Below, piece by piece: positions 27,001 to 29,258 of a stretch of 64,000 nucleotides of DNA (positions are counted from its first letter, which is position 1; each line of letters opens with the position of its first letter). Source of the DNA: an uncultured Steroidobacteraceae bacterium (GTDB taxonomy: Bacteria > Pseudomonadota > Gammaproteobacteria > Steroidobacterales > Steroidobacteraceae). A program made the translations under genes and the position numbers. The notes below the pieces were generated by a model. It saw only the letters and a list, made by a program, of their open reading frames with translations, was not told the DNA's origin and made no database searches. Location of the stretch: the NCBI GenBank assembly GCA_964417875.1, contig CAYQJU010000001.1, positions 39,675-103,674 of the forward strand. Reading direction: 5' to 3'.

Positions 27001-28179
27001 ATGGCCACTGCTGAACTGGAAGTCCGCTCCGCGACCGTGACCCATCGGGGACCCACCGGTGAGTCCCCCCCCATCCGCCAGATCCTCACGCTGATCGACC
27101 AGGTTGCCGCGCATGACTCCAGTGTGCTGGTGCTGGGTGAATCGGGCACCGGCAAGGAAGTGGTGGCGCGCGCCATTCACAACTCCAGTCCGCGACGCCA
27201 TCGTCCCTTCATTGCCGTGAACTGCGGCGCCATTCCTGCCGACCTGCTCGAAAGCGAGCTGTTCGGACACGAGAAGGGTGCGTTCACCGGTGCGGTGGCC
27301 ACGCGCAAGGGCCGCTTCGAACTGGCCGATGGTGGCACGCTGTTCCTCGACGAGATCGGCGACATGAGCCTGCCGATGCAGGTGAAGCTGCTGCGCGTGC
27401 TGCAGGAGAAGGTGTTCGAGCGTGTCGGCAGCGCGCTGCAGTATCGCTGCAACGTGCGCATCATCGCCGCCACGCATCGCAACCTCGAGGACTCGATCAC
27501 CCGCGGCACATTCCGCGAGGACCTGTTCTACCGCCTGAACGTGTTTCCCATCGACATGCCCTCGCTGCGCGAGCGCAAGCAGGACCTGCCGGTACTGATC
27601 CGCGACTTCTCCGAAATGAACGTTGCGGCGGGCCGGGCGCGGGTGCTGCTGACGGCCGGCGCGATGGAATGCCTGGAGCGCTACAGCTGGCCTGGCAATG
27701 TGCGCGAGCTGGGCAACCTGATCGAACGGCTGTCCATCCTCTGCGGCGGCCGGCCGGTCGGCGCCCAGGATCTGCCGCCGCGCTATCGTCCGGCCGACTG
27801 GACGCCGCCGGCGGACGATGATCGCGTGCCCGAAGCTGCTCCGCTCCTGATTGCCGCCGCGCCCGCGCCGACGGCGGCCATCGCCGATGCCGGCGCCCCG
27901 GCGACCGAGCGCGAGCACGCGACGCGCCTCTCCGAACGCGAAGTGCTGCTGATGCTCGAGGACCCGGCCACCGGCAGCGGCACGGTGTTGCCGCCCGGCG
28001 GCATCGATCTGCGCGCGCATGTGTCCTCGATCGAGGAATCGCTGATCCGCCAGGCGCTGGAGCGCAGCAATGGCGTGGTCGCGCAGGCCGCAAGGCTGCT
28101 GCAGCTTCGCCGCACCACGCTGGTGGAGAAGTTGCGCAAGTTCGGCATCGGCGGCGTCGACGAAGCGACGGCCGATTGA
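27001..28179 (+). CDS. Sigma-54-dependent transcriptional activator, FleQ-like AAA+ and HTH domains, no N-terminal FleQ/receiver domain
   Basis: 392 aa with Walker A GESGTGKE, the GAFTGA loop, an FleQ-like tail LPPGGIDLRAHVSSIEESLIRQALERSNGVVAQAARLLQLRRTTLVEKLRKFGI, and only about 25 aa before the AAA+ core. Confidence 0.88.
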   Translation: MATAELEVRSATVTHRGPTGESPPIRQILTLIDQVAAHDSSVLVLGESGTGKEVVARAIHNSSPRRHRPFIAVNCGAIPADLLESELFGHEKGAFTGAVATRKGRFELADGGTLFLDEIGDMSLPMQVKLLRVLQEKVFERVGSALQYRCNVRIIAATHRNLEDSITRGTFREDLFYRLNVFPIDMPSLRERKQDLPVLIRDFSEMNVAAGRARVLLTAGAMECLERYSWPGNVRELGNLIERLSILCGGRPVGAQDLPPRYRPADWTPPADDDRVPEAAPLLIAAAPAPTAAIADAGAPATEREHATRLSEREVLLMLEDPATGSGTVLPPGGIDLRAHVSSIEESLIRQALERSNGVVAQAARLLQLRRTTLVEKLRKFGIGGVDEATAD

Positions 28180-28198
28180 CGTTTCCGGCTTCCATTCC

Positions 28199-28212
28199 GT
28201 GACACGCGTCAC
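28199..28212. promoter_or_regulatory. GTGAC-ACGC-GTCAC inverted repeat just upstream of the second activator's sigma-54 promoter
   Basis: It matches GTGAY-N4-RTCAC. The centre lies 28 bp upstream of the promoter GG. Confidence 0.4.
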
Positions 28213-28231
28213 GCGATGGGCAGCCCCTGGC

Positions 28232-28247
28232 CGGCACGGAACTTGCT
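28232..28247 (+). promoter_or_regulatory. Sigma-54 promoter of the second sigma-54 activator gene (probably also fliE-fliK)
   Basis: CGGCAC-GGAAC-TTGCT. TTGC is followed by 13 nt (tctctcctcggtc, no SD) and then ATG 28260. Confidence 0.7.
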
Positions 28248-28259
28248 CTCTCCTCGGTC

Positions 28260-29258
28260 ATGTCGAACCCTGAACAGATTCCGCAGCTGAGCCGCGAGCC
28301 CGTCATCGTCGATGCGGCTTCGCGGGCGCTGCATGCGCTGGCCGCCCGCGTCGCCACCACCGACTGCACGGTGCTGATCAATGGTGAATCGGGCACCGGC
28401 AAGGAAGTGCTGGCCCGCTTCATCCATGGCCGCTCGCCGCGCGCACGCGCCGCGTTCATCGCCATCAACTGCGCGGCCATCCCCGAATCAATGCTCGAGG
28501 CCATGCTGTTCGGCTACGAGCGCGGCGCCTTCACCGGCGCGCACGCCTCGCATGCCGGCAAGTTCGAGCAGGCCCAGGGCGGCACGCTGCTGCTCGACGA
28601 GATCACCGAGATGCCGCTGGCGCTGCAGGCCAAGCTGCTGCGCGTGCTGCAGGAGCGCGAGGTGGAACGCCTCGGCGGCAGCTCGATGCTGAACCTGGAT
28701 GTGCGTGTCGTGGCCACCACCAACCGCGACCTGCGCGAGCAGGTGAAGGCCGGCCGCTTCCGCGAGGATCTGTATTACCGCCTGTGCGTGTTCCCGATGA
28801 CCGTCCCGTCGCTGCGCGAGCGGCGCGACGATGTGCTGCCGCTGGCCATGCGGCTGCTGGAACTGCGCAGCCCGCGCGGCGGACGCATTCCGGCGCTGTC
28901 GGCGGATGCGGCGCAGCTGCTGCTGAACTATCCGTGGCCGGGCAACATCCGCGAGCTGGACAACCTGTTGCAGCGGGCGATGATCCTCGCCGGCGACATC
29001 ATGATCGAGGCCTGCCACATCCGCTTCGAAGGCCTCGGCGAGACGCCGCTTCGCCATGATGCCAGTGGTGTCGTCGACCTGCAGGGCCGGCCGCTGCGTG
29101 GCTCGCTGCGTGCCGCCGAGAACCGCATCCTGCTCGAAGCGTTGCGCTCCGGCGAGAGCCGCCGCGATGTCGCGGCGCGCCTGGGCATCTCTCCCCGCAC
29201 GCTGCGCTACAAGGTGGCGCAGCTTCGTTCCGCAGGCATCGACGTGCCGGCCGCCTGA
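28260..29258 (+). CDS. Sigma-54-dependent transcriptional activator (minimal AAA+ plus Fis-type HTH, no receiver domain)
   Basis: 332 aa with [14 protein letters not shown] and the C-terminal [25 protein letters not shown]. An in-frame stop at 28200 and the absence of any alternative start codon fix ATG 28260 as the start. Confidence 0.88.

Follow-up and report, generated by a model that had tools for sequence, protein, structure and literature searches.

FleQ- and FleR-type sigma-54 activators without their N-terminal regulatory domains in the polar-flagellum gene cluster of a Steroidobacteraceae bacterium

Work on the polar flagella of Pseudomonas and Vibrio has indicated that activity depends on the N-terminal domain of the master activator FleQ and on the phosphorylated receiver domain of the second activator, FleR/FlrC, with the kinase acting as an assembly checkpoint. 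Here we describe two adjacent genes from an uncultured Steroidobacteraceae bacterium, which we call Act1 and Act2, that encode sigma-54 activators of this kind without these parts. They lie in a 64,000-nucleotide (nt) stretch of DNA (assembly GCA_964417875.1, contig CAYQJU010000001.1, positions 39,675 to 103,674 of the forward strand; hereafter the window) that contains a complete polar-flagellum cluster with housekeeping genes on both flanks, as judged from Pfam matches and the family assignment of its open reading frames (ORFs). The locus resembles the FleQ(FlrA)-FleSR(FlrBC) systems of Pseudomonas aeruginosa and Vibrio cholerae in that the AAA+ and helix-turn-helix (HTH) domains are orthologous, the gene order follows fliS-fleQ-...-fleR-fliE, the second regulator is placed behind a sigma-54 promoter, and FleN, FlhF and FliA are present. 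Unlike those systems, it lacks the FleQ N-domain (about 140 amino acids, aa), the kinase gene and the FleR receiver, Act2 is joined into the fliE operon, and residues N186 and R334, which belong to the cyclic di-GMP (c-di-GMP) site of FleQ, have been lost.

A second parallel is found in the Fla1 system of Rhodobacter (Cereibacter) sphaeroides, where FleQ and FleT are likewise two flagellar sigma-54 activators without phosphorylation input, and where the gene for the second activator, which is dependent on the first, stands at the head of the fliE operon (PMC7277832, PMC11999139). Act2 also heads the fliE operon, but FleT has no DNA-binding domain whereas Act2 has an HTH_8 domain, and the two are likened here by description, not by sequence. 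HrpR and HrpS of Pseudomonas syringae are also tandem sigma-54 activators consisting of AAA+ and HTH domains only (PMC10084136); these, however, arose by recent duplication and function as an obligate heterohexamer in the control of type III secretion, under regulation by HrpV, in contrast to Act1 and Act2, which are orthologs of two old and distinct flagellar regulators. PspF, LafK and other class Ic activators share the minimal AAA+ plus HTH build (PMC3162934) but belong to different families and regulons, with PspF under the control of PspA in trans and LafK serving as the sole master regulator of lateral flagella. Finally, Pseudomonas putida has a three-tier cascade in which every sigma-54 flagellar promoter is a direct target of activation by FleQ, with FleR in an auxiliary role (bioRxiv 10.1101/2021.08.29.457346). 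This is consistent with the single palindrome type that we describe below, although P. putida keeps full-length FleQ, FleS and FleR.

Act1 (27001..28179, forward strand, 392 aa) and Act2 (28260..29258, forward strand, 332 aa) both matched the Pfam families Sigma54_activat, AAA_lid_14 and HTH_8, with the AAA+ match starting at residue 20 in each, and neither protein gave a Pfam match to the Response_reg or FleQ domains. Both have the AAA+ plus HTH architecture that is classified as class Ic (PMC3162934). Act1 carries the Walker A sequence GESGTGKE at residues 46-53 (nt 27136-27159), the GAFTGA loop at residues 93-98 (nt 27277-27294) and an HTH at approximately nt 28030-28143; in Act2 the same elements are found at residues 42-49 (nt 28383-28406), 89-94 (nt 28524-28541) and, as HTH_8, 283-321 (approximately nt 29106-29222). 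The Walker B sequence is LDE in both. A first-pass annotation, made from the sequence alone, had described two tandem sigma-54 activators with Walker A GESGTGKE, an intact GAFTGA loop and a C-terminal Fis-type HTH but without receiver or FleQ domains, and the coordinates, motif positions and Pfam content confirmed this description. It had also noted how little precedes the AAA+ core; this stretch is indeed short in both proteins, although we measured it at about 15-19 aa in Act1 and about 13-19 aa in Act2 instead of about 25 and about 12 aa. No N-terminal extension is possible for either protein, because the closest upstream in-frame stop leaves 26 open codons before Act1 (stop at 26920) and 19 before Act2 (stop at 28200), none of them ATG, GTG or TTG. 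A mis-called start or a hidden N-terminal exon is thereby ruled out, and so is the addition of a receiver encoded upstream, which the annotation had itself judged impossible given the stops.

Among PDB entries, Act1 matched P. aeruginosa FleQ best, at 364 bits; the AAA+ domains of the two are 60% identical. Residues 16-266 of Act1 align to the linker and AAA+ domain of FleQ and residues 322-389 to its HTH, so that the C-terminal tail corresponds to chain residues 421-488 of the FleQ HTH region, and the recognition helix RRTTLVEKLRK is common to the Pseudomonas and Photobacterium orthologs. Act2 was instead closest to the AAA+ domain of V. cholerae FlrC (317 bits, vs 230 for FleQ), and its helix ISPRTLRYK is common to FlrC orthologs. 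Based on these alignments, we assign Act1 as a FleQ/FlrA ortholog without the N-domain of about 140 aa and Act2 as a FleR/FlrC ortholog without the receiver. This agrees with the earlier view of Act1 as a protein with a FleQ-like C-terminal tail but no FleQ N-domain, and of Act2 as a minimal 332-aa activator occupying the place of the FleS/FleR or FlrB/FlrC pair. The two are not recent duplicates, since their AAA+ domains share just 52% identity and their HTH regions do not align. When compared to the closest relative, L001, the ratio of nonsynonymous to synonymous substitutions (dN/dS) was 0.25 for Act1 and 0.32 for Act2, indicating purifying selection on both genes; together with the intact motifs and the conserved length, these values rule out that either gene is a pseudogene.

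Act2 heads an operon in which it is followed by fliE, fliF, fliH, fliI, fliJ and fliK (29271..34739, forward strand, assigned by Pfam), all co-oriented and tightly spaced; fliG is not among them. Act1 and Act2 are separated by 80 nt, and Act2 and fliE by 12 nt. The resulting order, fliD-fliS-(tPilZ)-Act1-Act2-fliE-fliF, is the canonical fleQ-fleS-fleR-fliE order minus the kinase. We searched for the missing parts with hidden Markov models (HMMs) derived from canonical FlrB kinases, FlrC receivers and FleQ N-domains and, in addition, with tblastn. The FlrB-derived HMM gave no histidine kinase match in the 64-kb window, and neither the HMM nor tblastn detected a FleQ N-domain or a remnant of one anywhere within it. 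The sole receiver domain of the window belongs to a CheY-like gene (49525-49911). RpoN-box and H-box peptides were not found in any frame, and every large ORF could be assigned to a family other than kinase or rpoN. The first-pass annotation had suggested that no phosphorylation input reaches either activator, and this holds for the window, which lacks a kinase match. It had also stressed that the cluster has neither a sensor kinase nor rpoN; we found neither, but the absence of rpoN is ordinary, as polar-flagellum clusters normally do not contain it.

To place the locus among its relatives, we scanned genomes at one genome per species and obtained 80 loci, 24 of which are Steroidobacteraceae-like (L001-L024). 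The FlrC ortholog is without a receiver in all 24, and in all of them the pair has fliE downstream. In each of these loci only 50-450 nt lie between the FleQ and FlrC orthologs, leaving no room for a kinase gene, and the kinase HMM gave no match in any of L001-L024. The N-domain is missing from most FleQ orthologs in this set, but a real one is retained in L005, L006 and L008; these three are 49-61% identical to each other, and that of L008 matches Pfam FleQ. Long N-terminal extensions on the Act1 orthologs of L010 and L015 were rejected as spurious, as they consist of Arg-rich open frames with no FleQ-domain signal. The short lengths are shared by more than 100 metagenomic sequence clusters per protein, of which the named ones are Steroidobacteraceae, and the Act2 homologs are all 331-350 aa long. 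The arrangement of Act1 and Act2 is, on this comparison of sequences, a conserved trait of the Steroidobacteraceae, a point that was not part of the earlier reading.

Outside the family, both proteins are truncated in Zhongshania (L029) and Rariloculaceae (L065), while L044 has no kinase and pairs a full FleQ with an FlrC that lacks the receiver, and Luminiphilus, Sediminihaliea, Thiomicrorhabdus and Thiosulfatimonas combine a truncated FleQ with an intact FlrB-FlrC pair. The canonical form is likewise present outside the Steroidobacteraceae, so that all combinations occur. In neighbour-joining trees, the receiver-less FlrC proteins of the Steroidobacteraceae formed one clade nested among receiver-bearing proteins and the other receiver-less forms were placed elsewhere, which implies at least three independent losses of the receiver, with comparable truncations arising separately in other Gammaproteobacteria. 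Full-length receiver-less forms of 330-370 aa make up approximately one in ten of the 150 best representatives of clusters at 50% identity.

We then considered how the two genes might be expressed, using the consensus TGGCACG-N4-TTGCW to scan for sigma-54 promoters and regarding sites with at least 11 of 12 consensus positions as strong. Seven strong sites were found in the window, compared to 1.15 expected, and these lie upstream of flgA, flgB, Act2, fliL, flhA, DUF2802 and fliG. Six of them coincide with the start of an operon or lie just 5' of it, and the seventh lies within the 3' end of flhB, before flhA. The promoter of Act2-fliEFHIJK, CGGCACGGAACTTGCT (28232-28247, forward strand), matches 11 of the 12 positions, and the divergent promoters of flgA (11599-11584, reverse strand) and flgB (11771-11786, forward strand) match all 12. 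The remaining mapped sites, all on the forward strand, are the fliL promoter (34848..34863), which has a one-mismatch palindrome of the type described below upstream of it, the promoter before the DUF2802 and HDOD genes (45746-45761), and that of a relocated fliG-fliM pair (47201-47216, with the ATG at 47229). In neither the 4 kb preceding Act1 nor the Act2-fliE gap did we find a sigma-54 promoter. No sigma-28 promoter was found for Act1, and neither a sigma-70-type promoter nor a terminator was detected around it. The first-pass annotation had assigned a sigma-54 promoter of its own to Act2 and none to Act1, and this layout recurs beyond the window, with a sigma-54 promoter between the activator genes in 22 of 23 related loci. 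Such a layout fits an order of action in which Act1 precedes Act2. As a separate observation, a palindrome, TGACGCGTTGCGTCA, followed by CTTTTCC is located 5' of Act1, just past the tPilZ stop (window 26920-26950); the core GCGTCAC-N-TTTTCC recurs 5' of the Act1 orthologs of L001-L004, L022 and L023 and may be a promoter or operator.

A different palindrome, GTGACACGCGTCAC (GTGA-N6-TCAC, 28199..28212), lies 19 nt upstream of the Act2 promoter and is a candidate activator-binding site. The window contains five exact copies of this element, compared to 0.83 expected, and four of these lie 11-102 nt upstream of sigma-54 promoters: the copy before Act2, one between the divergent flgA and flgB promoters (11702-11715), one upstream of the DUF2802/HDOD promoter (45677-45690) and one upstream of the fliG-fliM promoter (47176-47189). 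The copy before the Act2 promoter is exact in 18 of the 24 related loci and carries a single mismatch in four more. Its distance from the promoter is mostly 19-23 nt, or 10-11 nt in one subclade, and the N6 spacer varies freely. When the window and the 24 loci were taken together, 28 of 52 exact palindromes were located within 130 nt upstream of one of 46 strong sigma-54 promoters. The palindrome has the 4+6+4 geometry of the P. aeruginosa FleQ box, GTCaNTAAAtTGAC (PMC6120874). Since some activator besides Act2 itself must act on the Act2 promoter, the most economical candidate is Act1, which on these grounds probably binds the palindrome. In the three loci that keep the FleQ N-domain, the Act2 promoters are weaker (9-10 of 12 positions); L005 and L008 have no GTGA-N6-TCAC within 150 nt upstream of the Act2 promoter, and L006 has only a one-mismatch copy at a distance of 56 nt instead of about 20 nt.

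At three of the seven strong sigma-54 promoters, those of flgA, Act2 and fliG (11571-11599, reverse strand; 28232-28262; 47201-47231), the ATG lies exactly 12 nt past the last promoter base and no Shine-Dalgarno sequence is present. This spacing implies that the three mRNAs are leaderless or have a leader of 1-3 nt. The start of flgA is backed by a signal peptide and FlgA domains. The Act2 spacing is the same in L001, L022 and L023, and other relatives have a leader of approximately 40 nt with a Shine-Dalgarno sequence. We found no report of this leaderless-type spacing between a sigma-54 promoter and the ATG in a search of the literature. A possible 5'-leader hairpin in Act2 relatives, pairing CCTCCC with the Shine-Dalgarno sequence, was dropped because its 5' arm falls within promoter positions -10 to -1 and is probably not transcribed.

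The cluster also encodes potential sources of control over Act1. One is a FleN/FlhG-type ParA ATPase (42560..43450, forward strand; Pfam ParA/AAA_31), a probable anti-activator of Act1. Out of ten FleQ residues that contact FleN (residue list from PMC8528422), eight are identical in Act1 and one is conservatively replaced. Control by FleN, as the first-pass annotation had suggested, is therefore plausible from the conservation of this surface and the presence of fleN in the cluster. The same cannot be said of its suggestion that c-di-GMP binds to the AAA+ domain, if such binding is to follow the manner of FleQ. The FleQ positions R144, R185, N186, E330 and R334 correspond to R, R, A, D and M in Act1, the R334 position varies freely across the Act1 family, and the Pseudomonas- and Vibrio-type proteins keep R-R-N-E-R. 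Mutation of either R185 or R334 in FleQ abolishes c-di-GMP binding (PMC10723142). With alanine in place of N186 and methionine in place of R334, the site is partly lost, and FleQ-type c-di-GMP binding by Act1 is unsupported.

A 205-aa tPilZ-domain protein (26301..26918, forward strand; Pfam PF16823, 51.9 bits) is encoded directly 5' of Act1, and a tPilZ gene is found at this place in most of the loci for which the stretch upstream of the Act1 ortholog was recovered. Full-length FleQ genes (L041, L074) likewise have it as a neighbour, so that it is not specifically tied to the truncation. Across 25 homologs, a C-terminal FRRHRR is strongly conserved, as is an RFNAxGxxW motif, and the usual N-terminal RxxxR placement of canonical PilZ domains is missing. 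The window additionally encodes two HDOD-domain proteins (46235-47116 and 6861-7667), one of which shares its sigma-54 promoter and transcript with DUF2802, and an MHYT-GGDEF diguanylate cyclase (60041-61306) just beyond the flagellar cluster. These are possible c-di-GMP-related inputs.

Taken together, these results lead us to propose a phosphorylation-free form of the FleQ to FleS/FleR (FlrA to FlrBC) polar-flagellum hierarchy, to which we assign a probability of roughly 55%. According to this scheme, Act1, consisting of linker, AAA+ domain and HTH, would be the master activator and would be expressed from a sigma-54-independent promoter, with the FleN ATPase of the cluster probably restraining it through its AAA+ domain. 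Act1 would probably bind the GTGA-N6-TCAC sites 10-100 nt upstream of the flagellar sigma-54 promoters, and one of these promoters, in the 80-nt intergenic gap, would drive Act2 and then fliEFHIJK. Because its ATG follows 12 nt after the promoter without a Shine-Dalgarno sequence, Act2 is probably translated only from the near-leaderless mRNA initiated by sigma-54, which would tie Act2 synthesis tightly to Act1 activity. As Act2 cannot be phosphorylated, its activity would be set by the amount made, and once present it would add to or take over the later sigma-54 operons (rod, hook and others). The programme would be finished by fliA (43360..44163, forward strand; Pfam Sigma70 regions r2, r3 and r4) and the sigma-28 promoters. 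We infer four elements of this scheme: which protein binds the palindrome, that Act1 and Act2 are constitutively active, how the promoters are shared out between the two, and where transcription starts. The first-pass annotation had arrived at the same order, from Act1 to Act2 to the later sigma-54 operons to FliA, and the promoter layout in 22 of 23 loci and the missing kinase largely support it; control by c-di-GMP is the part that did not stand. Sigma-28-type promoters (TAAAG/TTAAG/TCAAG-N14-15-GCCGATA) occur before motA (9831-9857, reverse strand), flgM (10771-10796, reverse strand) and flgK (18753-18779) and in the flgB region (11610-11636), consistent with a final FliA tier.

Several lines of evidence weigh against this cascade. 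In P. aeruginosa, FleR 129-473, which comprises the AAA+ and DNA-binding domains and of which Act2 is an almost exact counterpart, is non-functional in vivo, and the receiver is needed to stabilise the FleR heptamer (PMC10696123). In one study, stable FleQ-FleN complexes required the N-domain of FleQ (PMC10723142). A free-standing Act2 and a FleN-controlled Act1 would therefore both need compensating changes. The recognition helix of Act1 is near-identical to that of Pseudomonas FleQ, yet the palindrome differs from the FleQ box by one base per half-site, and it also matches the CRP/Clp-type half-sites TGTGA-N6-TCACA. Moreover, the same palindrome is present at all promoter classes, so that Act1- and Act2-dependent promoters are not separable, and the FlrC-type sequence CGGCAA occurs in three copies near flgA/flgB, mildly above a background of 1.9/kb.

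The inactivity of receiver-less FleR lends some weight to an alternative that we consider possible but doubtful, namely that Act1 and Act2 form an obligate hetero-oligomer. Act1 alone would then act on the Act2 promoter, mixed Act1/Act2 AAA+ rings would act on the later promoters, and the mixed assembly would stand in for the ring-stabilising role of the FleR receiver, without which P. aeruginosa FleR forms no functional oligomers by itself (PMC10696123). There is a precedent in R. sphaeroides, where FleQ alone activates fleT-fliEFGHIJ and FleQ and FleT together activate class III (PMC7277832, PMC11999139, PMC10084136), and Act2 likewise heads the fliE operon behind a sigma-54 promoter. The single palindrome type at all sigma-54 promoters would also be in keeping with mixed rings. 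Act2, however, has its own HTH as well as intact GAFTGA, Walker A and Walker B sequences, whereas FleT is without an HTH, and the isolated AAA+ domain of V. cholerae FlrC heptamerises alone (stated in PMC10696123). A natural fusion, P0241 (717 aa; L081 6001-8154, NCBI GCA_054043545.1), bears on both sides of this question. It is encoded in a flagellar cluster with flhB-flhA-flhF-fleN-fliA-DUF2802 and consists of a FleQ N-domain and AAA+ domain without an HTH, followed by a receiver-less FlrC-like AAA+ domain with an FlrC-type HTH. Such a fusion suggests that both modules can work in one assembly, but it is a single sequence from a metagenome-assembled genome, and its second module is catalytically degenerate, with a degenerate GAFTGA and DN as Walker B. 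A more specific version, in which Act2 is active solely in mixed rings with Act1, as a gammaproteobacterial counterpart and possibly precursor of FleQ/FleT, with translational gating through the leaderless mRNA in addition, we regard as unlikely.

Control in trans and redundancy or decay are both less likely than the cascade and the hetero-oligomer. In the former, the tPilZ protein (through c-di-GMP), the CheY-like receiver (49525-49911) or the HDOD proteins would dock on the AAA+ domains, so that signals, possibly including phosphorylation, would still reach the cascade, much as VemR and DrdR act on Xanthomonas FleQ. Xanthomonas DrdR binds the AAA+ domain of FleQ and modulates its ATPase (PMC13535131), and PspF/PspA and HrpS/HrpV are precedents among activators without an N-terminal domain (PMC10084136). 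The position of tPilZ beside the Act1 ortholog in most recovered loci, its conserved FRRHRR, and the presence of a stand-alone receiver and two HDOD genes in the cluster all point in this direction. On the other hand, tPilZ also accompanies full-length FleQ (L041, L074) and is thus no specific substitute, the CheY-like gene, located behind fliG-fliM, is most simply read as a chemotaxis CheY, and the 64-kb window has no kinase gene, which together make this alternative improbable. That one truncated gene is a non-functional remnant, or that both are interchangeable on the same promoters, appears very improbable: P. putida and S. oneidensis are motile without FleR/FlrC, over-expressed FlrC can replace FlrA (bioRxiv 10.1101/2021.08.29.457346) and the palindrome is identical at all promoters, but the catalytic motifs of Act1 and Act2 are all intact, both genes are under purifying selection, 24 genomes and over 100 metagenomic sequence clusters keep the same short lengths, and the HTH regions differ, each fitting its own ortholog family.

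The wider cluster contains, in turn, motAB, flgN, flgM, flgA, flgB-L, fliC, flaG, fliD and fliS; an 84-aa ORF, tPilZ, Act1 and Act2, then fliE, fliF, fliH-K, fliL and fliN-R; flhB, flhA, flhF, fleN, fliA, a second motAB pair, DUF2802 and HDOD; and fliG, fliM, the CheY-like gene and PAS-MCP. Within it, fliG and fliM are away from their usual places, such that fliF abuts fliH (29641-31919) and fliL abuts fliN (34912-35766). They form a separate pair (47229-49222) with its own palindrome and sigma-54 promoter, next to the CheY-like gene. Among the related loci, fliG is absent after fliF only in the window and in its closest relative, L001.

The main interest of these findings is that they contradict the domain requirements set in model organisms. 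A whole family, and at least two or three further lineages independently of it, dispense with the FleQ N-domain, the FleR/FlrC receiver and the kinase in their polar-flagellum programme. These natural variants offer material for studying how a receiver-less AAA+ protein assembles, how the FleS/FlrB checkpoint has been replaced, and how c-di-GMP and FleN control have been rewired. In addition, the compact control region, in which a palindrome and a sigma-54 promoter are followed 12 nt on by the ATG, provides a simple system for close-range activation and, possibly, for leaderless translation.

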